Shown here piece after piece: positions 7,663 through 60,143 of a stretch of DNA of 64,000 bases. This DNA comes from Gammaproteobacteria bacterium. Its GTDB lineage: Bacteria > Pseudomonadota > Gammaproteobacteria > UBA4575. The stretch's first letter is position 1; each line of letters begins with the position of its first letter. Made by a program: the position numbers and the translations under genes. The DNA lies in NCBI GenBank assembly GCA_965243395.1, contig CBDEUS010000001.1, positions 32,001-96,000 on the forward strand, in the 5' to 3' direction. The notes below the pieces were generated by a model. That model was not told the origin of the DNA and ran no database searches. It saw only the letters and a program-made list of their open reading frames with translations.

Positions 7663-8658
7663 ATGAAAAAATTTTCTGCTTTTCGAATCCATTCAAACAG
7701 TGAAGGTACACAAGCAGGAATTGAGCAACTCAGTATTGATGATCTTTGCGAAGGTGATGTTGTTATCAAGGTAAAGTATTCAAGCGTAAATTATAAAGAT
7801 GCACTTGCGGGTTCTGGTAGAGCGCAAATTCTTCGACGTTCACCATTAGTGGGAGGTATAGATCTAGCTGGTGAAGTTGTTGAATCTACAAGTGGTGAAT
7901 TTGTTCCGGGTGATCAGGTCTTAGTAAATGGTAGCGGTTTAAGTGAAACACACGATGGGGGCTATGCAGAATTTGCTCGCGTTCCCACAGATTGGGTTGT
8001 GCCTTTACCAAAGGGATTAAGTTTAAGCCAGACTATGATTATTGGTACGGCGGGTTTTACAGCCGCATTATGTGTGCACTTGCTAGAACAGAATAATCAA
8101 AAAGTAGAAGATGGCCCGATTGTTGTTACAGGAGCAAGTGGTGGCGTTGGTAGTTTTGCGATCAATATATTACATAAGCTAGGCTTTGAAACCATCGCAG
8201 TGTCAGGCAAAAAAAATTCGTTTGACTACTTATATGAATTAGGGGCTACTAAAGTAGTAGGTCGTGAAAAAATCAAAATAGGAGATGGTGTATTAGAAAA
8301 AACACGTTGGGCTGGCGCTATTGATAACGTCGGTGGAGAAACATTAAGTGCATTGGTGCGTGCGACCAAGCCATGGGGAAATGTGGTCAGTGTTGGCATT
8401 GCGGGTGGAGTAAAATTTGAGCTTTCAACCATGCCATTTATTATTCGAGGCGTGAACTTATTAGGTGTAAGTTCATCTAATTGTCCACAAACACTTAGAA
8501 AAGTAATTTGGAATCGTCTTGGCGATGATTTGCACCCTGATCAAATAGCTAAGATACATTCTGAAACAGTTAAGTTAGAAGATTTACCGCAGATATTCGA
8601 AAAATTACTTAATAATGAAATTCAAGGCAGAACGCTTGTGGAGGTAAGTAATGATTAG
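7663..8658 (+). CDS. YhdH/AcuI-family NADPH-dependent MDR oxidoreductase (acryloyl-CoA reductase-like)
   Basis: Motifs 'YSSVNYKDALA', 'IGTAGFTAAL', 'VTGASGGVGS', 'MPFIIRGVNLLGV'. Confidence 0.88.
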   Translation: MKKFSAFRIHSNSEGTQAGIEQLSIDDLCEGDVVIKVKYSSVNYKDALAGSGRAQILRRSPLVGGIDLAGEVVESTSGEFVPGDQVLVNGSGLSETHDGGYAEFARVPTDWVVPLPKGLSLSQTMIIGTAGFTAALCVHLLEQNNQKVEDGPIVVTGASGGVGSFAINILHKLGFETIAVSGKKNSFDYLYELGATKVVGREKIKIGDGVLEKTRWAGAIDNVGGETLSALVRATKPWGNVVSVGIAGGVKFELSTMPFIIRGVNLLGVSSSNCPQTLRKVIWNRLGDDLHPDQIAKIHSETVKLEDLPQIFEKLLNNEIQGRTLVEVSND

Positions 8659-9205
8659 AAGGTTTTTTATGAAAAATACTTATACAGTTTTAATTTTTAC
8701 TTTTGCGCTTCTCGCGAGTGCGATGGTTTATGCGGCAAAAGTGAACCCTCCTGCGCAAATGCCTGAGTTTACCCAAATGGATCAAGCTGCATGGATCAAT
8801 TCAAAACCTTTGGCAGTAAGTGATCTGCGTGGCAAGGTAGTTTTAATTGACGTATGGACTTATGGTTGTTGGAATTGCTACAACTCATTTCCCTGGTTAA
8901 GAAGTGTTGAAGAAAAATTTGCAGATCAAGATTTCACAGTGATCGGTATTCATACACCAGAGTTTGAGCATGAGAAAAAACGTGAAAATATTGTTAAAAA
9001 AGTAGAAGAATTTATGCTGCATCACCCTGTGATGATTGACAACGATTTTGCCTACTGGCGTGCCTTGCGAAATAAATATTGGCCTGCATACTACATAGTT
9101 GATAAGCAAGGCAACATTCGTAAAGGGTTTATTGGCGAAACTCACCAAGGAGATCGCAGAGCAAAAAAGATTGAAAACTTAATTGCTAAATTGCTGAAAG
9201 AATAA
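8651..9205 (+). CDS. Exported thioredoxin-fold redoxin (TlpA/DipZ C-terminal-like)
   Basis: Signal peptide, 'LRGKVVLIDVWTYGCWNC' (CxxC), 'IGIHTPEF', 'YWPAYY'. Confidence 0.88.
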   Translation: MIRRFFMKNTYTVLIFTFALLASAMVYAAKVNPPAQMPEFTQMDQAAWINSKPLAVSDLRGKVVLIDVWTYGCWNCYNSFPWLRSVEEKFADQDFTVIGIHTPEFEHEKKRENIVKKVEEFMLHHPVMIDNDFAYWRALRNKYWPAYYIVDKQGNIRKGFIGETHQGDRRAKKIENLIAKLLKE

Positions 9206-9291: not shown

Positions 9292-9319
9292 ATAACTGCT
9301 TATAGCCCAAAGCAGATAT
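9292..9319 (+). repeat. 28-bp palindromic cassette-boundary repeat, copy A1
   Basis: ataactgctta-tagccc-aaagcagatat. Stem ctgctt/aagcag. Precedes the first accessory gene. Confidence 0.7.
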
Positions 9320-9440
9320 TAAATAATTACTAAACGTAATCGCCGACTAATAAAATAGTCTAATCTTCGTTCTACATACGTGCATTTAATGTAATGAATT
9401 GGAGTTTAGTTTACTAGACTCAATGTTTACAATTAGACAC

Positions 9441-10718
9441 ATGTCAAATAAACATCATGTTGTTGTTATTGGAGCTGGGTTTGGCGGAATACAAACTGTC
9501 CATCATCTCAAGCACAAAAATGTCCGCATCACACTTATTGATCAGCATAACTATCATCTTTTCCAGCCCTTACTATACCAAGTTGCAACCGCATTATTGG
9601 CACCATCAGAGATCGCCTGGCCAATACGTAATTTGGTACGTAAGAGAAAGGATATTACTACTTTATTAGCAGTAGTAGCGGATGTAGATAAAGATAACAA
9701 AAAAGTTATTCTAGAAAACGGCGAATCAATTACATACGACACTCTTGTAATAGCAACAGGAGCACGTCACGCTTATTTTGGACATGACGAATGGTCAAAA
9801 TATGCCCCGGGCTTAAAAGTTTTAGAGGAAGCTACATCTATAAGACACAAAATTTTGATCGCATTTGAACGAGCTGAATTTGAAACAGATAAAATGAAAC
9901 AGGATGCGCTTTTAACTTTTGTAATAGTTGGTGGTGGCCCAACAGGTGTAGAACTTGCTGGCACAATTGCCGAGCTTGCGCACCATACGCTATCTAACGA
10001 ATTTCGCCATTTTGATTCTAAAACCACTCGTGTAGTGCTTGTAGAAGCTTCTTCCCGGATTTTGTCTTCATTTTCGGAAAGTCTGTCGAACTATGCAAAG
10101 AAAGCTCTAGAGAATCTCGGGGTAGAAGTTCAACTTGGGCAGCCTGTATCAACCTGTGATGAGGATGGCGTGACTATAGGTTCTGAAAGGCTAAACTCTA
10201 AAACAATTCTTTGGGCAGCAGGGGTTCAAGCATCACCCGCGGCAAATTGGCTTAATGTGCAAGCTGATCATGCAAATCGTGTCATCGTAGAGCCAGATTT
10301 AACGATCCCGAACAATTCAGAAATATTTGTTATTGGAGACACAGCATCAATTAAGGATAAAAATGGCCATCAAATTCCTGGCATTGCACCTGCCGCTAAA
10401 CAACAAGGGCACTATGTAGCCAAACAAATCAAAGCACGTCTTCAAGGTAAAAAATTAACAAACCCATTTCAATATAAAAGCTTTGGGCAGATGGCAACGA
10501 TTGGTAAACGTGCAGCAGTTTTTGAAATCGGTAGACTGAAATTTCATGGCTGGCCTGCTTGGTGGTTATGGGGAATAACACATATTTACTTTTTAATCGG
10601 GGTGCGTAATAGGATGTCTGTTGCATTAAGCTGGTTATGGATTTACTTCAAAGGTGATAGAGGTGCGCGATTGATTACAAACTTTGATACAACAACAACT
10701 GAGAAATTTGAAGAATAG
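9441..10718 (+). CDS. Type II NADH dehydrogenase-like NAD(P)/FAD oxidoreductase
   Basis: Motifs 'VVIGAGFGG', 'FQPLLYQVAT', 'IVGGGPTGVELAG', 'FVIGD', 'APAAKQQG'. ATG 9441 chosen over TTG 9399. Confidence 0.9.
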   Translation: MSNKHHVVVIGAGFGGIQTVHHLKHKNVRITLIDQHNYHLFQPLLYQVATALLAPSEIAWPIRNLVRKRKDITTLLAVVADVDKDNKKVILENGESITYDTLVIATGARHAYFGHDEWSKYAPGLKVLEEATSIRHKILIAFERAEFETDKMKQDALLTFVIVGGGPTGVELAGTIAELAHHTLSNEFRHFDSKTTRVVLVEASSRILSSFSESLSNYAKKALENLGVEVQLGQPVSTCDEDGVTIGSERLNSKTILWAAGVQASPAANWLNVQADHANRVIVEPDLTIPNNSEIFVIGDTASIKDKNGHQIPGIAPAAKQQGHYVAKQIKARLQGKKLTNPFQYKSFGQMATIGKRAAVFEIGRLKFHGWPAWWLWGITHIYFLIGVRNRMSVALSWLWIYFKGDRGARLITNFDTTTTEKFEE

Positions 10719-10761
10719 CAGTAACGTGTTGTTGGAACTATTTAATACGAAATGCTTTAAG

Positions 10762-10789
10762 ATGTCTGCTCACGACCCAAAGCGGACAT
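10762..10789 (+). repeat. 28-bp palindromic repeat, copy A2
   Basis: atgtctgctca-cgaccc-aaagcggacat. Confidence 0.9.
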
Positions 10790-10799
10790 TTTGGTCATC

Positions 10800-11150
10800 A
10801 TGAAATTAATCGTAAATTGCATACTGCATATTAGTTTTATGATTGTATTTGGTTGTTCACAAGAACCTATAATAAATAATTCAAAATTTGCTGAAAGCTT
10901 AATAGAAGAACATTTTTCTATAGGTACGCACGTAAATGAGATAAATAAATTTTGTGACAAAAATGGATATGCAATATATGAAGCTACTAAATGTGAAAAT
11001 AATCAAGAAAGTTGTTCCCATGGAGCACTTGTAACTGTGTCGACACCAAATAATAGCTGGTGGTATGGAAATGGGCTTATTCAAATATATTTAACATTTG
11101 ATGATAATAAAAAATTAAATCATATTAAGCACGAAATATATTATGACTAA
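10800..11150 (+). CDS. Hypothetical lipoprotein (cassette-like)
   Basis: MKLIVNCILHISFMIVFG-C is a lipobox-like signal. Lies between repeat copies A2 and A3. Confidence 0.65.
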   Translation: MKLIVNCILHISFMIVFGCSQEPIINNSKFAESLIEEHFSIGTHVNEINKFCDKNGYAIYEATKCENNQESCSHGALVTVSTPNNSWWYGNGLIQIYLTFDDNKKLNHIKHEIYYD

Positions 11151-11167
11151 CGACCCAAATCGGACTT
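11140..11167 (+). repeat. 28-bp repeat, copy A3 (left arm degenerate)
   Basis: attatgactaa-cgaccc-aaatcggactt. Same core as A2. Overlaps the upstream TAA. Confidence 0.65.
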
Positions 11168-11173
11168 AGCTTT

Positions 11174-11470
11174 ATGACGAATCAGCTATCAAACGAAGAA
11201 GAAAAGGAGCTTTCATCCCTTTATCTTCAAGCAATTATTATTGCTGACAAATTTGCTAATGTAGATTCAAATGAGTCGGAAGCGATTATTGGAATGAATA
11301 ATATTCTAACCAGTGTAAAACCTATAGTGGAAGCGTCTTATCAGAAGAAAAATTTAAAAGGCATGAGGATGATTATAAGTGACTTCAAAGAGATGTTTTC
11401 TGGGTGCTCAGATGAAGATCGGCAAGCAACAAACAAAATATTTAAACAAAATAATTTAGCTGAGTGGTAA
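11174..11470 (+). CDS. Hypothetical protein (cassette-like)
   Basis: 98-aa ORF filling the space between A3 and A4. No recognised motif. Confidence 0.6.
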   Translation: MTNQLSNEEEKELSSLYLQAIIIADKFANVDSNESEAIIGMNNILTSVKPIVEASYQKKNLKGMRMIISDFKEMFSGCSDEDRQATNKIFKQNNLAEW

Positions 11471-11479
11471 TTCGCAAGT

Positions 11480-11507
11480 ATGACCGCTAATGACAGAAAG
11501 TAGAATT
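11480..11507 (+). repeat. 28-bp repeat, copy A4
   Basis: atgaccgctaa-tgacag-aaagtagaatt. Confidence 0.75.
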
Positions 11508-11526
11508 TAGTAAAAAAGGGATAATT

Positions 11527-11955
11527 ATGAAACGTTTAATATTCGCTGTATTATTATTTAATGTTGTTTCAATTACTTTAGCTGCACCTCCTAAACCCGC
11601 TGAAACTAAATATCTAAAAACAGAAGTTGGTGGATTCGCAATAGAGAAAGGAAAAGCACTTTATTCTCTACAATATAAAATTAAAAAGCCCTTTGATAAA
11701 AAAATTTCGGCACAGATTCAGTACGAAAATCCTGATCCCAATGGAGGAAGTTTGATTGATGAATTTATAATTAATCCAGGGCAAGTATCAATTTCTGTCG
11801 AATCAGTAGTGTTAAGTTGTATAAAAAACAATAAAAAATATAAAGTTGTACTAAAACTATTCGACGACGGTAAGCAAATTACCAAACATAAAGATAAGGT
11901 ACAGTTTGCTTTACCAGATGAGATAATTCAGCAGTTAAAAATTACATTATGCTAA
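11527..11955 (+). CDS. Hypothetical exported protein (cassette-like)
   Basis: AAGGGA RBS, Sec signal peptide (MKRLIFAVLLFNVVSITLA), beta-rich, two Cys. Confidence 0.7.
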   Translation: MKRLIFAVLLFNVVSITLAAPPKPAETKYLKTEVGGFAIEKGKALYSLQYKIKKPFDKKISAQIQYENPDPNGGSLIDEFIINPGQVSISVESVVLSCIKNNKKYKVVLKLFDDGKQITKHKDKVQFALPDEIIQQLKITLC

Positions 11956-11963
11956 ATGCGTAA

Positions 11964-11991
11964 ATATCAGCTTTCGAACAAAAGCGGACAT
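11964..11991 (+). repeat. 28-bp repeat, copy A5
   Basis: atatcagcttt-cgaaca-aaagcggacat. Confidence 0.85.
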
Positions 11992-12019
11992 TTAAAATTA
12001 ATGTTCTAATATCATCAAA

Positions 12020-12508
12020 ATGCGTTATTTTCTCTTAGTTCTGACTATATTTTCCAACCTATGTCAAAGTAATCAAGAAGAAGTCTACGTTCAATATAAC
12101 GAATATTTTAACCATGTTAATAGTTCAACAAAAACTGAACCCATTAGTATTTATTTTACAAAAAAAGAAATTTTAAAAAGCAAACAAGCCATCAAAACAA
12201 TGAGAGAGCATGGTTTTAGCGATGACTACATAAAGGATAGTATGTGGAAATATCTCGCAAGAGGCGCACGATTCAAAGAAATATCAGATCATGCAGAGGA
12301 TAATTATTTAGATGATAGTAAATGTTTGGTAATACGAGGTTTATACCATAATAATAAATGGGTAAGTGCAATTCACAAATACGATTACGAAGATGGTTCA
12401 TTTAAGATTGATAGTATTTTTTTAGATTATGATGATGGTGGTGATGAACTATTTATTCACGCTAATCTAGATTTATGTGATTTATTACATAGTGAAACTG
12501 CTACATAA
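12020..12508 (+). CDS. Hypothetical exported protein (cassette-like)
   Basis: Short hydrophobic N-terminus. The TAA stop directly abuts repeat A6. Confidence 0.65.
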   Translation: MRYFLLVLTIFSNLCQSNQEEVYVQYNEYFNHVNSSTKTEPISIYFTKKEILKSKQAIKTMREHGFSDDYIKDSMWKYLARGARFKEISDHAEDNYLDDSKCLVIRGLYHNNKWVSAIHKYDYEDGSFKIDSIFLDYDDGGDELFIHANLDLCDLLHSETAT

Positions 12509-12536
12509 ATGACCGCTATTGGCCGAAAGCGGATAT
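12509..12536 (+). repeat. 28-bp repeat, copy A6
   Basis: atgaccgctat-tggccg-aaagcggatat. Confidence 0.92.
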
Positions 12537-12546
12537 AAAAATTTGT

Positions 12547-13014
12547 ATGAAAAGACAATCACCATTAGTTTGTTGGATACTTTCAGTAATTACCAGCGGC
12601 ATTTATTCATTATATTGGCTTTATAATCGCAGTGATGTAATTAATGAAATGTCGGGTAATACTAATTTTCAAGGAAAGAAAATGGTTAAGAAAATATTGT
12701 TTTCATTTGTAATTGTGTCTGTATTAATGTGTTTAGCGCTATATTTTGATCCTAATCAAGTCAGTAATAAAGAAGCAGATGATGATTTATTTAGCATATT
12801 TTTATGGCTAACATTTTTCGCCGCTATGTTTTATACATGGTCGATTATTCAAGCATTTTACAAAGCTGGATATGCTATCCAAACATTAGAAAAGAAACAG
12901 GACATCGAAAACCAATGCTCACCTTATTTATCATGGGTATTATTATTTTTTTTGTACTTTAATATTCCTTATTTGCAATCTCATTTAAATTGCTTGGGTG
13001 GTCCACAGGAATGA
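12547..13014 (+). CDS. DUF4234-like membrane protein (cassette-like)
   Basis: N-terminal 'ILSVITSGIYSLYWLY' and C-terminal 'PYLQSHLN' match the DUF4234 pattern. Several TM segments. Its TGA is supplied by repeat A7. Confidence 0.7.
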   Translation: MKRQSPLVCWILSVITSGIYSLYWLYNRSDVINEMSGNTNFQGKKMVKKILFSFVIVSVLMCLALYFDPNQVSNKEADDDLFSIFLWLTFFAAMFYTWSIIQAFYKAGYAIQTLEKKQDIENQCSPYLSWVLLFFLYFNIPYLQSHLNCLGGPQE

Positions 13015-13038
13015 CCGCTATTGGCCGGAAGCAGACAT
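13011..13038 (+). repeat. 28-bp repeat, copy A7
   Basis: atgaccgctat-tggccg-gaagcagacat. Confidence 0.92.
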
Positions 13039-13071
13039 ATTTTACTTATAATGGTTTAAATTAGTTTTGAA

Positions 13072-13536
13072 ATGAGTACATATATACATCATCTAACTGC
13101 GAATGATATGACAATCATGAGAGCTATGCTCATAACATTTGGTGAAGTATTCAATGACATGGATACCTATACTGAAAAACAGCCTAGTTCAAACTACTTG
13201 GAAAAATTACTCAATAAGGATTCATTTATCGCATTGGCAGCTTTAAAGAATAATAATGTCGTTGGCGCGATGGTAGCTTATGAGCTTGTAAAATTTGAGC
13301 AAGAACGCAGTGAATTCTACATTTATGATCTAGCAGTAGATAAATCTCATCGGCGTGAGGGTATTGCAACTGGCTTGATAGAAGAGCTAAAAAATATTGC
13401 TGCAAAACGAGGAGCTTACGTAATTTTTGTTCAGGCTGACAAAGGTATTGAGGATGAACCAGCAATTGCACTCTATAATAAGCTTGGAAAAACTTGTGAG
13501 GATGTATTCCACTTTGATATACAAGTTAATGATTAG
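13072..13536 (+). CDS. aac(3)-I: AAC(3)-I family aminoglycoside N-acetyltransferase (GNAT)
   Basis: Colinear with AAC(3)-I motifs: '[18 protein letters not shown]', '[27 protein letters not shown]', '[10 protein letters not shown]', '[20 protein letters not shown]'. Confidence 0.88.
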
Positions 13537-13537
13537 A

Positions 13538-13565
13538 ATGTCCGGTATCGATCCAAAGCGGACTA
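13538..13565 (+). repeat. 28-bp repeat, copy A8
   Basis: atgtccggtat-cgatcc-aaagcggacta, 1 nt after the aac TAG. Confidence 0.88.
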
Positions 13566-13596
13566 ATTATAGAAAACTGACAATCCTATAACATTT

Positions 13597-14097
13597 ATGA
13601 GAATAATATTTTTTTTAATACTAATCATTTTAATATGTTCGTGGTTTTATTATGGGCATTGGATCTTTAACAATAAAAAACTATCTTGGAAAATTATTTG
13701 GGTATTTGTAACAATTCTACCGTTTATTAGTTTTTATTATTTAACTAACCCAAGTGTTAACTATTACAAAAATCAATTTACACTTATATCAGGGTTTGAG
13801 TTTCCTTCAAATGGTATATTTATAGACTATTCTTCATCGTTTCCAGATTTACAAGGCGATTATAGCGTTTGTGGTTTGTTCAAAGCTCCAACTGATTTCA
13901 TAAAAATACTAAACTCTACAATTCCTACAATACAAAATGGTCAATTCAAGCCACGAATGTTTTGCAAATTGGATGAGAAATCAAAATATTACTACACAAA
14001 TGTTTTAGATCTTGAAAATGAGGAACTAGGAGTTACAGGAATACTTGGTATCAGCACCGAAACAAATGTTGTTCATTTTCAATTTTTTAGAAATTAA
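13597..14097 (+). CDS. Hypothetical membrane-anchored protein (cassette-like)
   Basis: Two N-terminal hydrophobic segments followed by a soluble domain. Confidence 0.65.
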   Translation: MRIIFFLILIILICSWFYYGHWIFNNKKLSWKIIWVFVTILPFISFYYLTNPSVNYYKNQFTLISGFEFPSNGIFIDYSSSFPDLQGDYSVCGLFKAPTDFIKILNSTIPTIQNGQFKPRMFCKLDEKSKYYYTNVLDLENEELGVTGILGISTETNVVHFQFFRN

Positions 14098-14100
14098 ATA

Positions 14101-14128
14101 AAATCCGCTATTGGTTGAAAAATATGCA
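14101..14128 (+). repeat. Repeat copy A9 (left arm and core recognisable, right arm lost)
   Basis: aaatccgctat-tggttg-aaaaatatgca, 3 nt after the stop. Confidence 0.55.
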
Positions 14129-14166
14129 AAAATGACAATTAGAACTTATATAAAAATATTTTAATC

Positions 14167-14607
14167 ATGAAAGATATAAAAAAAGTTTTTCGTAATCTTG
14201 AAAGAAAATTGAACAAATCAAGTTGGTTTGATAATGGTTGGGAGATTTACAACCGTGGTGTTTATCTGCAACTCTACAAGGATAGCTGGCACAATCATAA
14301 TCAGGGTGGAATTCATTTTGAAACTTTTATTGAAGCGAGAGAAGTTAAACAAAAGGCATTCCCAATCTGTATGCATGCGGAGGAAGATTGCCCCTCACAA
14401 CAGACTTTCATTCAAGAGTTTATGGCATTGGAAGGTGATCGAATAAAGGGTTGGAAAGGTTATCAAATTGGCGAAGGCTACAGCATCTGCAAAAGAACAC
14501 TTCCTCTTAATTTTAAGAATCTGGAGCAACGGTTATTAGAAGAGTTCAGCAGACTTCGACAACTGGAAAAAAGCGTGGAAAAGGCACTGAGTCTAGTTCA
14601 AATTTAG
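14167..14607 (+). CDS. Hypothetical cytoplasmic protein (cassette-like)
   Basis: 146-aa ORF with protein-like composition ('LQLYKDSWHN..GGIHFE'). Family not recognised. Confidence 0.7.
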   Translation: MKDIKKVFRNLERKLNKSSWFDNGWEIYNRGVYLQLYKDSWHNHNQGGIHFETFIEAREVKQKAFPICMHAEEDCPSQQTFIQEFMALEGDRIKGWKGYQIGEGYSICKRTLPLNFKNLEQRLLEEFSRLRQLEKSVEKALSLVQI

Positions 14608-14622
14608 GCTGGCTTACACGGT

Positions 14623-14650
14623 GCAAACATTAATGGCTGAAAGCAGTCAT
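14623..14650 (+). repeat. Repeat copy A10 (core and right arm recognisable, left arm lost)
   Basis: gcaaacattaa-tggctg-aaagcagtcat. Confidence 0.6.
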
Positions 14651-14676
14651 CTAATTAATGTAATAAGGTATTAAAA

Positions 14677-14970
14677 GTGATTAGAAAACTATTCCTGTCT
14701 ATTATATTTATACCTGTCATTTCATCGGCGTGGATGGGGGGTGGAGGCGGTAAAAGTTATGAGGATGGCATGTTTTGGGGTGCTGATCTGGATCGAAACG
14801 AACGTTTAGATCGAGAGGAAGCTAAGGCTGTTTATAATTTAGCAGAAGATGAAATTTTTACACGCTATGATAAAAATGGGAACGGAACAATAAATCTACC
14901 TGAATTTATGGAATTTTTTCAACATTCTCCATGGACGAATAAAATTAATCATCCTAAAGCTAAAGAGTAA
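14677..14970 (+). CDS. Small exported EF-hand protein
   Basis: Signal peptide and two EF-hand loops, 'DLDRNERLDREE' and 'DKNGNGTINLPE'. Confidence 0.75.
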   Translation: MIRKLFLSIIFIPVISSAWMGGGGGKSYEDGMFWGADLDRNERLDREEAKAVYNLAEDEIFTRYDKNGNGTINLPEFMEFFQHSPWTNKINHPKAKE

Positions 14971-15054
14971 CTTAAAATGATGTGATTTGAGTCAGTGCAG
15001 CACTTGAATTATAAAAGATTATTATTGTTGTTACTCATATTCACATATCCTTAC

Positions 15055-16284
15055 TCAAGCGAAGAACCAATAGCCTAGTGTAATTGCGGCGATGATGCCT
15101 GCCAGGTCCGCAAACAATCCACAGCCAATTGCATGACGCACACGATTAATGCCGACACTCCCAAAGTAAACGGCTAAAACATAAAAAGTTGTTTCTGTAC
15201 TGCCTTGCACAATAGCAGCTACATTAGCGGCAAAAGAATCAACACCGTAGTTGTTCATAGTTTCTAATAACATTGCGCGTGCTCCGCTGCCTGAGAAGGG
15301 GCGCATTAAAGCAGTGGGCAAGGCGGCGATGAAGTCTGGATTTAAACCAAGCGTTATTACAACTTTTTCAATACCTTTCAGCACCATATCCAATATCATG
15401 CTGGCACGTAGTACGCCGATAGCTACAAGCATGGCAACTAGATAAGGAATAATTTTGAGAGCGACATCAAAACCCTGTTTGGCACCATCAATAAATGCGT
15501 CATAAACATTCACTTTGCGTAAAAAACCCATAACAAGAAATGCAATGATGATTAAAAGTAACAATAAATTACCAAGTAAGCTGGATCGCTCTGCAAGTGA
15601 AGAGGAACTTTCACTGAGTAAAAATGCTAGGAGTAAACCGATTAGTGCTCCAAAACCCAAAAGATAAAATAATACAGTTTTATTAAATAGATTTAGGCGC
15701 TGAATGAATGCGACGAGTAGTAAGCCAGCAAGTGTTGAGCAACAAGTGGCAAGAAGAATGGGAATGAATACAGCGGTTGGGTCTACAGAACCTTGCTGTG
15801 CGCGAAATAAAAAGATTGTTACGGGTAGTAAAGTTACTGACGATGTATTGAGTACTAAAAATAAAATCTGGGCGTTGCTGGCAATTTCTTTTTCAGGATT
15901 CAGTTCCTGCAAATCTTGCATCGCTTTAAGGCCGAGCGGAGTTGCAGCATTGTCCAGTCCCAGCATATTTGCAGCCATGTTCATTGTGACTGATCCTATT
16001 GCGGGATGATCGCTTGGTACTTCCGGCATGAGTTTTTTAAACAGAGGGCGGAATGCTTTCGTAAGTAACTCAACAAATCCAGCGCGTTCTGCAATAGTGA
16101 AAAACCCCAGCCAAAGACACAATACTCCAACTAAACCTAGAGCAATTTCGACACTTAAGGAAGCCATATCGAAAGTCGCCTGCACGACCTGTGCAAAGAT
16201 GCCATTGTTATCACGAACAATAAATTGATAAATACAGCTTAGAAATGCTGCTAGGAAAAATCCGAGCCAAATGTAGTTAAGCAT
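15055..16284 (-). CDS. SpmA/SpmB fusion (nucleoside-recognition gate domain) membrane protein
   Basis: Motifs 'MLNYIW', 'ANMLGLDNAATPLGLKAM', 'MRPFSGSGAR', 'GSTETTFYVLAVYFG'. Confidence 0.9.
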   Translation of the reverse strand: MLNYIWLGFFLAAFLSCIYQFIVRDNNGIFAQVVQATFDMASLSVEIALGLVGVLCLWLGFFTIAERAGFVELLTKAFRPLFKKLMPEVPSDHPAIGSVTMNMAANMLGLDNAATPLGLKAMQDLQELNPEKEIASNAQILFLVLNTSSVTLLPVTIFLFRAQQGSVDPTAVFIPILLATCCSTLAGLLLVAFIQRLNLFNKTVLFYLLGFGALIGLLLAFLLSESSSSLAERSSLLGNLLLLLIIIAFLVMGFLRKVNVYDAFIDGAKQGFDVALKIIPYLVAMLVAIGVLRASMILDMVLKGIEKVVITLGLNPDFIAALPTALMRPFSGSGARAMLLETMNNYGVDSFAANVAAIVQGSTETTFYVLAVYFGSVGINRVRHAIGCGLFADLAGIIAAITLGYWFFA

Positions 16285-56215: not shown

Positions 56216-56243
56216 ATGACTGCTTTTGACTGAAAGCGGATAA
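56216..56243 (+). repeat. 28-bp repeat, copy B1
   Basis: atgactgcttt-tgactg-aaagcggataa. Opens the second accessory run, 42 nt after ubiI. Confidence 0.85.
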
Positions 56244-56366
56244 CTTAAAATCATTAATTTTCTAATAAATTCAATTATTACAATAGCATCAATATTTAAT
56301 GTTAGATTATAATTAAATTTAATCATAAATAACGTTCAACTTACATAATTTGAATCGTAAGGATCA

Positions 56367-57161
56367 ATGCTAAACATGAAAAAACTTATGTATCTGGTTC
56401 TCAGTATTATATTACTAGGGAGCTCACTCACATCTCATGCAAACACCCTGGAAAACGTTCTTAAAACTGGAACAATGCGTATTGGCGTTTCTCTATACGA
56501 ACCGTGGGTGATCAAAAATAAAAAAGGAGAGTTGGATGGCTATGAAATTCAAATCGCTAAGCAGCTCGCAAATGATTTAGGAGTTACTCCCGAATTCAAA
56601 GTCATTGACTGGGAAGTTTTGATAAATGAATTAGAACATAATGCAATAGACATAATTATTGCAGGTATGGCGATTACGCCAGAACGTGCGCTTCGAATAA
56701 ATTTTTCTAACCCCTATTCTAGCTCTGGGATCAGCATTGCTGCGTGTTTAGCACAGACAGAAAATATGGATTCGCTGAGTGAACTAAATGATTCAAAAAT
56801 TACGATCGGAGCGGTTTCCAATACCGTCTCTGAAGAACTCGCACGGCGTTTTTTTAATAAAGCTAAAATAAAATCCTTTACTAAAAGCGAGGATGCGATA
56901 AATGCTGTAGTTGATGGAGAAATTCACGCCTTGGTTGAATCCTCCCCGGTTCCGGAATTTTTAGCTATGAAACATCCAGAACAAGTAGATGTCCCGCTTA
57001 GCAAACCATTACTAAGCTACAAGACTGGGATGGCGGTGAATAAAGGAGAGCAAGAATTTTTAAATTATTTAAATGCCTGGATTACTGCTAGAGATGCGGA
57101 CGGGTGGTTATCTGCTAAACATAAGTACTGGTTTGAATCGTTGGATTGGAAAAAGGATTGA
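56367..57161 (+). CDS. Orphan amino-acid ABC substrate-binding protein (family 3)
   Basis: Signal peptide, 'GELDGYEIQIA', 'IDIIIAGMAITPERALRINFSNPY'. No permease or ATPase adjacent. Confidence 0.88.
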   Translation: MLNMKKLMYLVLSIILLGSSLTSHANTLENVLKTGTMRIGVSLYEPWVIKNKKGELDGYEIQIAKQLANDLGVTPEFKVIDWEVLINELEHNAIDIIIAGMAITPERALRINFSNPYSSSGISIAACLAQTENMDSLSELNDSKITIGAVSNTVSEELARRFFNKAKIKSFTKSEDAINAVVDGEIHALVESSPVPEFLAMKHPEQVDVPLSKPLLSYKTGMAVNKGEQEFLNYLNAWITARDADGWLSAKHKYWFESLDWKKD

Positions 57162-57164
57162 TTT

Positions 57165-57524
57165 TTGTTTGCAGGTTTTCTAAATATCGAATTATCGAAT
57201 AGAGAATATTTCTATGTACTCTCAGCGTTATTACTAATTTCTTCAATTGTAATTGCTGATCCAAATTCGCAGCTCAATCTACCGGATGATTTTGAACAGT
57301 TATCAGTAGATGAAGTATTTATGCGAGGGGACAAGCAGAAAGATGTAGAAGAAAATGAGTGGCGCAAATCCAAAAAGGAATCCGATAAATCAAATGTTCG
57401 TTGGGGTGCTAAATCTATATACGAAGATCAAAAAGATATAGATCCATTTTTTTCAACCTCAAATAATTCTAATGACATAAGTGATGTTCCTGAGGCTACA
57501 CGGCAAATCCAGATCAAGTTTTAG
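57165..57524 (+). CDS. Hypothetical exported protein
   Basis: Hydrophobic N-terminal segment, ends in QIKF. Start uncertain. Confidence 0.5.
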   Translation: MFAGFLNIELSNREYFYVLSALLLISSIVIADPNSQLNLPDDFEQLSVDEVFMRGDKQKDVEENEWRKSKKESDKSNVRWGAKSIYEDQKDIDPFFSTSNNSNDISDVPEATRQIQIKF

Positions 57525-57611
57525 TTATTTAAATTTCAAATTTATATTCATAATATGTCCGATTCAGCAATTCTCAGTGGTCGAGACGAACATTCGTGAA
57601 TTAAGTATTTA

Positions 57612-58721
57612 ATGCATAAAACTTTATCTTATCTCGTTTTTTGTGTTCTATTTATACATGTATTTACAATTGTAAATGCACGTACTCCGCCAAAAGAAGC
57701 GATTGATGCATGTAAAAACGTTAGTTCTGGTGATCAATGTGCCTTCAAAACACCGCATGGAAGAATAACAGGAGTATGTCGTAATCCTCCCAATCAATCG
57801 CAATTGGCTTGTATACCTTCTAGAGGAAATCAAAATAGAGGTGATAATCCTGTTCTACAATCAGATAATCAAAACCAACGCCCGAATACAAGACAACACA
57901 CAATTAATCAGTCATCTGGAATCATAGAAGCTGTCCCTGCAACAACTCACCCATCGATAAAAAGTAATCTAGATATTTCTTTACAAGGTGACACTCGCGT
58001 ACTCAGAGCAAATGGTATTCCACAACATGATACAGGAGTATTTCCAAATAGTGAGAATCCACACAGAATACAAGAACAAAATTACGTTTATAAAATTAAT
58101 GTTAAACCTACACCTAATAATTTTTTCGCTCCACTAGGAATGCATAATTTCGGATTAGCAGTTAATGGGGTCCCTTTTGATCCTGGTGCGGCTGAATGGT
58201 ACTTAGGAAATAGAAACAGTGAATGGCAATATGAACCAATGTCTGGTGCCATACGTTTAGGCTTAGATGAAAATCATGCACATGTACAACCTAGTGGAGC
58301 ATATCATTACCACGGAATACCCACATTATTACTAGATAGCTTGGATGTTAATGGTTCTTCGCATTCTCCCTTGATTGGATGGGCTGCAGATGGATTTCCT
58401 ATATATGCAATCTACGGATATGAAAATCCACAAGATATTGATTCAAAAGTAATAAAAATGACGTCAAGCTATTCGCTACGCACGGGTAATAGACCGAGTG
58501 GCGCAGGCAATCCTGGTGGCAAATTTGATGGCACTTTTATAAATGATTATGTTTATGTTGAAGGAGCAGGGATTCTTGATATGTGCAATGGCCGCATGAC
58601 TGCAACACCTGATTTTCCAGAAGGAACTTATGCTTACTATATATCAGAGTTCTGGCCAATAATTCCCAGATGTTATAAAGGTACACCCTCAAAAGATTTT
58701 ACCCATCAACGTGCACGTTGA
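57612..58721 (+). CDS. YHYH-domain exported protein
   Basis: Motifs 'ANGIP.H', 'GLAVNGVPF', 'GLDENHAHVQPSGAYHYHG', 'IGWAADGFPIY', 'LDMCNG'. N-terminal Cys-rich mini-domain. Confidence 0.88.
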   Translation: MHKTLSYLVFCVLFIHVFTIVNARTPPKEAIDACKNVSSGDQCAFKTPHGRITGVCRNPPNQSQLACIPSRGNQNRGDNPVLQSDNQNQRPNTRQHTINQSSGIIEAVPATTHPSIKSNLDISLQGDTRVLRANGIPQHDTGVFPNSENPHRIQEQNYVYKINVKPTPNNFFAPLGMHNFGLAVNGVPFDPGAAEWYLGNRNSEWQYEPMSGAIRLGLDENHAHVQPSGAYHYHGIPTLLLDSLDVNGSSHSPLIGWAADGFPIYAIYGYENPQDIDSKVIKMTSSYSLRTGNRPSGAGNPGGKFDGTFINDYVYVEGAGILDMCNGRMTATPDFPEGTYAYYISEFWPIIPRCYKGTPSKDFTHQRAR

Positions 58722-58748
58722 TTAATTCGCACATCAGATTTAATTTGT

Positions 58749-58776
58749 TTATCTACTCAAGGACGAGAGTAGCGTT
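58749..58776 (+). repeat. 28-bp repeat, divergent copy B2 with compensatory stem
   Basis: ttatctactca-aggacg-agagtagcgtt. Stem ctactc/gagtag has the same geometry as the other copies. 27 nt after the YHYH stop. Confidence 0.5.
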
Positions 58777-59083
58777 CATTCGTATGAAAAAATTTTGTTA
58801 ATAAGTAATTTTGTTACGAATATTGCACACAAAATAATTCCAAAAAATATTACGAAGTTGGAAATAAATTCTTGTATATACACGTATAATATCCGGTAGT
58901 TAATTTAAATGAACAATCAATCTATAATATTAAAACTGAAATTTATTAATATTGAACTACATTATTAAATCTTTTGTTACACTACAATTCGTATTTATTT
59001 TAGTAGTTGTTCGGATTTATCGATTAAAAAAATAATTGTTTGATTTATGTTTTGAATCTATATTTCGTTCATTCCAAAATTAA

Positions 59084-59449
59084 ATGAAAGCATTATTTAT
59101 TTCATTCCCTGCATCAGATTATCAATCTAGTAAACAGTTCTATGAGGAAGCGGTCGGATTACCAATAGATCGTGAATTTGATGGCATGCCGCATAGATTT
59201 ACAAATTATGATCTTGGAGAAATTAAGCTAAAACTATTTGAATGGAAAGAAAAATGGTATGGAAGTGGTCATTCAGGTCTTTTTATTGAAACTAGTGAAC
59301 TTGATAAAACAGTTAAACATATACGAGATCTAGGCGGTAAGACTACAGAAATCACAGTTCATGAGTGGGGAGGCCGATGCTGTTCGATAACCGACCCTTT
59401 TGGCAATATTTTTGATTTAATTGATTCGAACAAAAAAGGTAACGCATAG
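59084..59449 (+). CDS. VOC/glyoxalase-bleomycin resistance family protein
   Basis: Motifs 'SKQFYEEAVGL' and 'EWGGRCCSITDPFGNIFDL'. Confidence 0.82.
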   Translation: MKALFISFPASDYQSSKQFYEEAVGLPIDREFDGMPHRFTNYDLGEIKLKLFEWKEKWYGSGHSGLFIETSELDKTVKHIRDLGGKTTEITVHEWGGRCCSITDPFGNIFDLIDSNKKGNA

Positions 59450-59471
59450 TGTTTTTTGAGATATCACTAGA

Positions 59472-59499
59472 ATCACTGCTATTGGCCGTAAAAAGACAT
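59472..59499 (+). repeat. 28-bp repeat, copy B3
   Basis: atcactgctat-tggccg-taaaaagacat. Same core as A6/A7. Confidence 0.75.
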
Positions 59500-60074: not shown

Positions 60075-60143
60075 GAGAAGTTTTTATATTGAAATAACAT
60101 CCATGTTGTTGCTCTTATTCGCTGATCCCTGCGTTCACTAAAA

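Follow-up and report, generated by a model that had tools for sequence, protein, structure and literature searches.

The window analysed here (64,000 nucleotides; positions 32001-96000 of contig C1 of the gammaproteobacterial genome GCA_965243395.1, referred to as G000) contains an array of ten genes separated by copies of a 28-bp palindrome. This array proved to be one of about 25 such loci in a two-contig, 100%-complete assembly of 2.58 Mb. Comparison with related genomes indicates that the content of the array turns over completely between close relatives, that cassettes move between arrays, and that the points at which homology breaks off coincide with the palindromes. The reading favoured here, to which we would give an even chance, is that the loci form a cassette system working like an integron or an array of dif modules, served by an enzyme from outside the families searched. 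The mechanism itself is one that we infer from the properties of the site.

The ten copies of the palindrome (ATGWCYGCT-N10-AGCRGACAT) lie on the + strand in one shared orientation, one at each gene junction (Table 1), and the same family was recovered independently by a repeat search of the window. The units between the copies measure 1470, 378, 340, 484, 545, 502, 527, 563 and 522 bp, and each holds a single + strand open reading frame (ORF). When scored with a position weight matrix (PWM) refined on the whole genome, seven copies are clear (27-44 bits), one is marginal and two have decayed to half-sites, and the sequence flanking the ten copies is not conserved. Past the first gene, a repeat either overlaps the stop codon upstream of it or lies at most 15 nt away, and the next start codon follows 1-38 nt on. 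The GC content is 0.30-0.32 over 11-14 kb, compared with 0.38-0.41 in the flanks, and six of the array ORFs have no family match in either Pfam or NCBIfam. A preliminary description of the window had reported the ten repeats with their positions, spacings, common orientation and one ORF per unit, the tight packing around stops and starts, an AT-richer cargo including NDH-2 (type II NADH dehydrogenase), DUF4234, AAC(3)-I and EF-hand proteins, and the absence of a nearby integrase. All of this was borne out: the four named cargo families are upheld by Pfam and NCBIfam profile matches, and no integrase lies in or beside the array.

The same description had dealt with one array; the genome contains 113 sites at about 25 loci. 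At the threshold used (at least 18 bits with the genome-refined PWM), a first-order Markov shuffle of the genome gave no site at all, which excludes chance as the source of the 113. The loci comprise about a dozen arrays of 3-18 sites, several single genes between two sites, and seven single sites. Clustering is pronounced: of the 111 consecutive site gaps, 77 are shorter than 1.5 kb, whereas 1000 random placements gave 7.5 such gaps on average and never more than 18. Nearly all of the 113 copies are intergenic, 99 are co-oriented with the upstream gene, and orientation is uniform inside arrays. The median distance from stop codon to site is 13 nt, and in 15 cases the stop, a TGA, falls within the site itself; the enrichment behind co-oriented stop codons that the preliminary description had proposed to test is seen in the genome-wide PWM scan. 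Indiscriminate spread of the motif, which that description had named as the pattern that would speak against a cassette system, was seen in part: single sites do follow core genes, but orientation is tied to genes and clustering is strong. The arrays together hold about 108 cassette ORFs, among which there are only three paralog pairs, and their GC content is mostly 0.33-0.38 (genome, 0.38-0.39). The paralog pairs were considered as a guide to cassette ends and set aside, being too old (69% identity, or similarity at the protein level only) for boundaries to be visible.

Each site is built of two 9-bp arms and a 10-bp centre. Two main types of centre, A and B, can be told apart, along with intermediates. 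The asymmetric pattern of the loop (G at position 13, CC at 15-16 and AA at 18-19) is kept even across genomes of very different GC content. Arm positions 6 and 23 vary independently of one another (CG 33, TG 29, CA 27, TA 14), and the predicted hairpins of the 28-mer are weak (-4.7 to -5.5 kcal/mol). Because the arms vary independently and the hairpins are weak, it is sequence rather than fold that appears to be conserved, as would be the case for a protein-binding duplex site.

Sites also occur in composites. Fourteen site pairs are spaced 73 or 83 bp apart and arranged in the order A, conserved spacer, B, giving a unit of about 101 bp with a conserved 45-nt spacer between its two sites. The design is shared by 32 distinct 73-bp composites (from G000 and from G012, G002 and G004, three other species of the genus), in which each of the four arms retains its own variant. 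Within one 7.2-kb array, moreover, nothing but such a composite is conserved in other species (77-90% identity). G000 also carries 22 copies (for example C1:423442-423499) of a second, genus-wide repeat, which is about 58 nt long and contains two small hairpins. The repeat often lies 49-50 nt past the last A-type site of an array, sometimes stands inverted at the start of an array, and comes after the last site at 10 of the 25 loci; the motif-poor species G014 has it as well, and there a diverged copy of the 28-bp site adjoins it. This repeat is probably a terminator-like element, which would place the cassettes between a resident gene and its terminator. As a universal platform for cassette arrays it was rejected, since it comes after the last site at no more than those 10 loci and the largest arrays lack it.

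Turnover was followed by DNA search in 14 other species of the genus. Six relatives keep the purK-ADH-redoxin and 'Gate' genes that flank the array of the window, and in one of these the interval is empty and measures 20 bp (L017), the others having one or two unrelated genes there. The ten cassettes are absent from all ten related loci, and two others carry different site arrays. Cassettes 2-6 gave matches in the 14 species only to the sites themselves, and 12 of the 13 cassettes of another array had no DNA match in five genus genomes. Gain, loss and reordering of units with breaks at the repeat, which the preliminary description had anticipated, were thus met with in the form of empty or different intervals, rearranged units in G012, and homology that ends at sites.

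The rearranged units in G012, the closest relative, involve the AAC(3)-I cassette, which is 90% identical in DNA there and has a homolog of cassette 9 directly downstream. Cassette 8 is missing at this place, where the junction between the GNAT gene and the cassette-9 homolog retains only a right half-site, matching site 8; the cassette-8 homolog of G012 is found on a separate contig, with a decayed site on either side. Upstream of AAC(3)-I, G012 has a cassette that matches one from a different array of G000. Cassette 9 itself has DNA-level copies in 7 of the 14 other species, with different neighbours each time, and in two genomes its homology starts at the site, even though one of these sites is of type A and the other of type B. 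At a core locus past a 176-aa gene, only G000 and G012 have the site (1 of the 11 other genomes examined), and the homology between the two stops at the site.

A further case is that of NDH-2. A DNA-level match to this gene is present in 9 of the 14 other species, and in G003, G006 and G014 the gene is flanked, at a place that has no sites, by two genes which in G000 are direct neighbours (C1:1167249|1167385). G000 has a single copy, enclosed by sites 1 and 2 of the array in the window. Judged by this comparison, NDH-2 is a formerly site-less core gene that has relocated by 1.1 Mb into an array. Contigs from other studies bear on the same junction: X1 (another study, record 3) matches positions 10590-10789 with one difference in 200 nt and diverges right past site 2, and X3 (a third study, record 19) bridges NDH-2, site 2 and cassette 2 as in the window. 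The source-like runs X6-X9 are not independent evidence.

On the favoured reading, the 28-bp palindromes are copies of one orientation-specific DNA site. They delimit promoter-less single-gene cassettes, placed head to tail downstream of a resident gene from whose promoter the cassettes may be transcribed. A sequence-specific enzyme acting on double-stranded sites would cut cassettes out and put them in. This might proceed by conservative recombination between like sites, with the A and B centres as two compatibility groups, or by an insertion that duplicates the site, as adaptation duplicates the repeat in CRISPR arrays. The enzyme would lie outside the families searched, either as an unrecognised host protein or as an outside supply, for example from a phage or plasmid not binned with the genome.

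Five tyrosine recombinases are encoded in G000: XerC, XerD (both above cut-off; TIGR02225, 401 bits, and TIGR02224, 370 bits), and three of phage type, of which two are generic integrases by the same NCBIfam scan and the third, of 432 aa, is a probable one. The preliminary description had supposed a recombinase encoded elsewhere; no candidate emerged among XerC, XerD, the phage-type integrases or the families searched, and none of the ten large array ORFs tested is a recombinase. The phage integrases were considered as a link to motif-bearing phage contigs and discarded, as their similarity to the integrases on those contigs is merely generic (24-36% identity). Cassette 9 was likewise rejected as a candidate enzyme, because its family is widespread in marine bacteria and its DNA-level copies are confined to half of the other genus species.

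Several observations weigh against the favoured reading, of which the outcome of the enzyme search is the first. Searches of the genome for IntI, serine recombinases, IS110, Y1, rve, DDE_Tnp_1, TnpB, reverse transcriptases and Cas1 gave no match, IS110, rve, DDE_Tnp_1, TnpB and Y1 being the transposase families covered. No multi-copy insertion sequence (IS) was seen either, three of the dispersed duplications having been checked by Pfam and found to be EF-Tu, a fatty-acid desaturase and a binding protein, and the motif-rich genomes G004 and G007 have two PF00589 matches each, the number expected for XerC plus XerD. The last gene of the array, cassette 10, has no site after it. Some of the 25 loci are lone sites directly after core genes, and the restriction of the site at the 176-aa-gene locus to the two closest genomes shows that sites reach formerly site-less places. 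No circular or precisely excised form was seen among the contigs, where apparent joints were other site copies (side <30); contig joints between sites are uninformative on excision, as are the uncovered parts. Finally, GC-rich (soil) contigs carry sites singly, or in double or triple clusters, around ordinary genes.

The last point is best seen in the distribution of the motif. Counts in the genus and family are of pattern matches with up to three mismatches, summed over both strands, so that a near-symmetric site can count twice. By this measure 13 of the 14 other genus species have 46-317 matches each and the sister genus has 218; G014 has one, and for three further genera of the family the count is zero or one. 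Of 401 genomes sampled evenly across the class, 17 have a match, and at least three are present in G000, G059, G178, G276, G183 and G108, a patchy distribution as expected of a mobile system. Exact matches were also found in 13 IMG/VR contigs (54-61% GC) and in at least 120 metagenome stretches; the 80 of these that were listed have a median GC of 0.57. Among the neighbours on the GC-rich contigs, PF04392 solute-binding proteins are the commonest, with 28 ORFs spread over 22 of 93 contigs; the domain was confirmed in 9 of 10 neighbour ORFs tested, and the closest Atlas clusters of one such binding protein are from Pseudomonadota. A triple-site cluster from a GC-rich contig gave no match by blastn in PLSDB. 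The viral contigs encode terminases, large serine recombinases (four contigs) and tyrosine integrases (seven contigs). One of the IMG/VR contigs (L133, 6489 bp) contains a 6-kb block, with genes for a large serine recombinase, a DUF2924 protein, a terminase and a DNA methylase, bracketed by inverted 74-bp double-site clusters that are 88% identical.

These data bear most directly on the rival account that survives best, which we judge unlikely but which deserves serious weight. It holds that the site is a repeat resembling repetitive extragenic palindromes (REPs) or bacterial interspersed mosaic elements (BIMEs), lacking a REP-associated tyrosine transposase (RAYT), selfish or domesticated, which accumulates past stop codons in flexible regions. 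There would be no cassette enzyme, and the gene flux would be due to ordinary horizontal transfer and to homologous or slipped recombination between 28-bp repeats. The site does resemble REPs and BIMEs in being a short extragenic palindrome with many copies near the 3' ends of genes, in its clusters of two or three between ordinary genes in GC-rich bacteria, and in the single copies past core genes. The co-occurrence of the 58-nt repeat family, the empty search for a recombinase or transposase, the gain of a site at a formerly site-less core locus, and sites that are decayed or missing beside conserved cassettes (as with the cassette-9 homolog in G011, G012 and G007) all fit the same account. 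However, PF01797 (Y1/RAYT) had no match in G000, G059, G276, G178 or G183, and the single match in G015, a genome of the sister genus, has no motif within 1.5 kb, so that Y1 is absent from four of the five other motif-bearing genomes and is not motif-flanked in the fifth. The extreme clustering and single orientation are unlike the dispersed, alternating layout of REPs, and one site stands at each junction across about 108 unrelated genes. In addition, REP families are normally species-specific, whereas a nearly identical 28-mer occurs in distant taxa, in genomes of 38% and of about 57% GC. A check against known models, as the preliminary description had proposed, gave neither an Rfam match nor a link to RAYT. 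Its claim of a separate gene-capture system stands in one part, in that the units behave as cassettes, and is weakened in another by the missing enzyme candidate and the REP/BIME-like clusters of GC-rich bacteria.

The remaining three accounts are weaker than the REP-like one. It is improbable that the site is an RNA hairpin at gene boundaries, acting as a processing, stability or translation-coupling signal and carried along with accessory genes, which would depend on it to be expressed. Such a role would accord with the strict co-orientation with genes, with a position between stop and start that often includes the stop, and with the lack of room for promoters between units. Compensatory change in the stem was nevertheless sought across the sites and none was found; C-A and U-G combinations are equally common, so that the hairpin of neither strand is favoured, and predicted stability is low. 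Searching Rfam with relaxed thresholds, for the array as well as the terminal repeat, gave chance-level matches only, none of them at a site. An RNA signal also leaves the homology breaks at sites and the movement of cassettes unexplained.

Still less probable is that the sites are dif-like targets of XerC and XerD, that is, chromosomal counterparts of the plasmid dif (pdif) modules of Acinetobacter, on which the housekeeping XerC and XerD are assumed to act. As in those modules, 28-bp sites bound small gene modules in many contexts and no dedicated recombinase lies beside them; the 28 bp can be read as 11 + 6 + 11, XerC and XerD are the only recombinases common to all motif-bearing genomes examined, and each of the two xer genes has a small site pair 3-4 kb away. 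Beyond length, however, no resemblance to dif was found. The genome has a dif-like 28-mer at C1:959290, at the maximum of the cumulative GC skew, which has four mismatches to the Escherichia coli consensus and marks the replication terminus; this canonical dif has no arm in common with the 28-bp motif, which makes Xer an unlikely agent. Furthermore, dif modules are bounded by alternating sites, whereas the array sites here are all in one orientation, are chromosomal and bound about 100 cassettes per genome, and motif-poor relatives, including G014, also have two Xer-sized tyrosine recombinases.

The comparison with integrons is the closest in architecture. Shared features are the compact, co-oriented, mostly promoter-less single-gene cassettes with one site per junction and stops running into the site, the diverse, AT-shifted contents mostly without assigned function, the turnover between close relatives and the AAC(3)-I cargo. 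An attC site, by contrast, is an imperfect repeat of 57-141 bp with RYYYAAC/GTTRRRY cores, conserved in structure, whereas the present site is a near-perfect 28-bp palindrome conserved in sequence. The claim in the preliminary description that the site is not attC held up, in that core motifs within 40 nt of the 113 sites are not enriched (GTTRRRY at 16 of 113 against 11.6% of random windows; RYYYAAC at 12 of 113 against 8.7%). The IntI profile TIGR02249 (cut-off 265) finds at best XerD and XerC (83 and 77 bits), with the IntI-specific part unmatched, and neither IntI nor Cas1 is present in any of the 14 motif-rich genus genomes, G000 included. IntI does score above cut-off in the sister genus (G015, 483 bits) and in one other motif-bearing genome (G178, 470 bits), where the integrons (L147, G015:C29:1-12000; L148, G178:C8:1-8000) are divergent arrays of small genes with attC-like junctions, and the 28-bp site is absent from the 12 kb (L147) and 8 kb (L148) beside those IntI genes. 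The A + B composite was also considered as a long, imperfect, attC-like hairpin, its length being suitable and its outer arms pairing in the minimum-energy fold; this was rejected, as the fold is no better than that of shuffled sequences (z -0.5 to -1.4). That the loci are degenerate integron arrays, attC clusters whose IntI has been lost or acts in trans, is hence the least credible of the accounts, given also that there are about 25 loci rather than one attI platform.

Three further systems share single features with the loci. In Neisseria, dRS3, the Neisseria intergenic mosaic elements (NIME) and minimal mobile elements involve a short inverted repeat that is present in hundreds of copies, marks intergenic mosaics and variable gene slots, and is associated with rearrangement; the intervening units there are mostly non-coding repeats, and the motif is the target of an IS110-type enzyme. 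The present motif likewise marks variable slots between conserved genes, but it differs in sequence and size and G000 has no IS110. CRISPR arrays are similar in layout only, as direct copies of a 28-bp, partly palindromic repeat between inserts, a layout that would arise if insertion duplicated the repeat; the inserts here are whole genes of 340-1470 bp rather than spacers of about 30-40 bp, and there is no Cas1. For a MITE (a miniature transposable element with inverted repeats) or a mobile insertion cassette that an IS moves in trans, no matching IS or transposase was present among the families searched. By their defining tests, then, the system is not an integron, a REP/RAYT system, a set of Xer modules or a CRISPR array.

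The single species of the genus that is almost without the motif, G014, is also the only one with IntI (387 bits) and Cas1. This is suggestive, though a single case, and it is the ground for supposing that the cassette system may take the place of integrons in the genus. We put forward, only tentatively and with more doubt than confidence, a wider proposal: that these loci may represent a second, integrase-independent route to cassette arrays, with a duplex site of two compatibility types that is either recombined by a novel enzyme family or duplicated at each insertion, many platforms, capture of core genes and horizontal sharing among distant Pseudomonadota and phages, which would have taken the place of integrons in the genus. 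A literature search at the level of listings and abstracts found no published account of such a system.

To our knowledge, no machine for stacking single genes into expressed arrays is well understood except the integron, and the origin of integron cassettes is still an open question. Here, a large natural system combines integron-like architecture and fast turnover with a different and very simple site; this genome of 2.6 Mb holds about 100 cassettes, and in relatives the pattern matches number up to roughly 300. NDH-2 is a visible case of a core gene turned cassette. Should an enzyme be found, it would offer a new tool for recombination at a 28-bp target and reveal a new route of spread for genes such as that of the AAC(3)-I acetyltransferase. 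If no enzyme exists, the system shows that a REP-like repeat alone can organise a flexible gene pool, which would change how such repeats are to be read.

Table 1. Sites, cassettes and flanking features of the array, with a second small locus of the window (positions in the window; site scores from the genome-refined PWM).
Feature	Position	Strand	Evidence or remark
Redoxin-family resident gene, conserved upstream flank	8651..9205	+	Pfam AhpC-TSA/Redoxin; orthologs 76-90% identical, adjoining purK-ADH in relatives
Site 1, B-like loop, slightly degenerate, 86 nt past redoxin stop	9292..9319	+	30.5 bits
Cassette 1, NDH-2 (type II NADH dehydrogenase)	9399..10718	+	Pfam Pyr_redox_2; NDH2_C slightly below cut-off; likely start near 9440
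Site 2, type B, rare loop	10762..10789	+	40.5 bits
Cassette 2, 119-aa protein	10791..11150	+	no match in Pfam or NCBIfam, nor at DNA level in 14 genus genomes
Site 3, loop of type B, arms decayed, overlapping cassette 2 stop	11140..11167	+	15.9 bits, marginal
Cassette 3, 98-aa protein	11174..11470	+	no Pfam/NCBIfam match
Site 4, A-like	11480..11507	+	27.2 bits
Cassette 4, 142-aa protein	11527..11955	+	no Pfam/NCBIfam match
Site 5	11964..11991	+	27.5 bits
Cassette 5, 162-aa protein	12020..12508	+	no Pfam/NCBIfam match
Site 6, type A, immediately past stop	12509..12536	+	44.2 bits
Cassette 6, DUF4234 membrane protein, TGA stop within site 7	12547..13014	+	Pfam PF14018
Site 7, type A	13011..13038	+	42.2 bits
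Cassette 7, AAC(3)-I family aminoglycoside N-acetyltransferase (GNAT)	13072..13536	+	NF033083 equivalog, 221.3 bits (cut-off 200)
Site 8, type B	13538..13565	+	34.1 bits
Cassette 8, 166-aa protein	13597..14097	+	no Pfam/NCBIfam match
Site 9, decayed: left arm and A loop kept, right arm lost	14101..14128	+	-9.2 bits
Cassette 9, 146-aa protein, very conserved unnamed family	14167..14607	+	no Pfam domain
Site 10, decayed: loop and right arm kept, left arm lost	14623..14650	+	8.9 bits
Cassette 10, EF-hand protein, multi-copy family	14677..14970	+	Pfam EF-hand; several DNA matches per genome
Weak remnant of terminator-like repeat	15026..15050	+	nhmmer E = 0.11, 13.5 bits
'Gate' (nucleoside-recognition) membrane protein, resident, conserved downstream flank	15055..16284	-	Pfam PF07670; orthologs 83-92% identical in six relatives
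Second small locus, sites at 56216 and 59472	56216..59499	+	33.6 and 21.6 bits; terminator-like repeat 60090-60141

A putative decayed A site at 14977, ahead of the terminal remnant, was also considered and rejected on its PWM score (-17.8 bits). Two of the cassettes merit separate mention. The AAC(3)-I gene (13072-13536) is here a cassette in an uncultured marine gammaproteobacterium, and AAC(3)-I genes are known as integron cassettes. The cassette-9 family comprises proteins of 145-147 aa with 572 homologs at E <=0.001 and no Pfam domain; the best 120 of the 572 are 70-97% identical and carry the labels of marine groups that are not related to one another (Enterovibrio, Marinomonas, Oceanospirillaceae, Myxococcota and Reichenbachiella). 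Conservation of this degree between phyla suggests that the gene is often transferred and that its function is tightly constrained.

Long, near-perfect tandem repeats are present at all contig ends of the assembly (G000:C1:1-9348, C2:1-10404, C1:1272337-1279210 and C2:1292134-1299313). Their periods, of about 387 bp and about 318 bp, are common to both contigs, so that the assembly of the chromosome is broken at two large tandem-repeat arrays.

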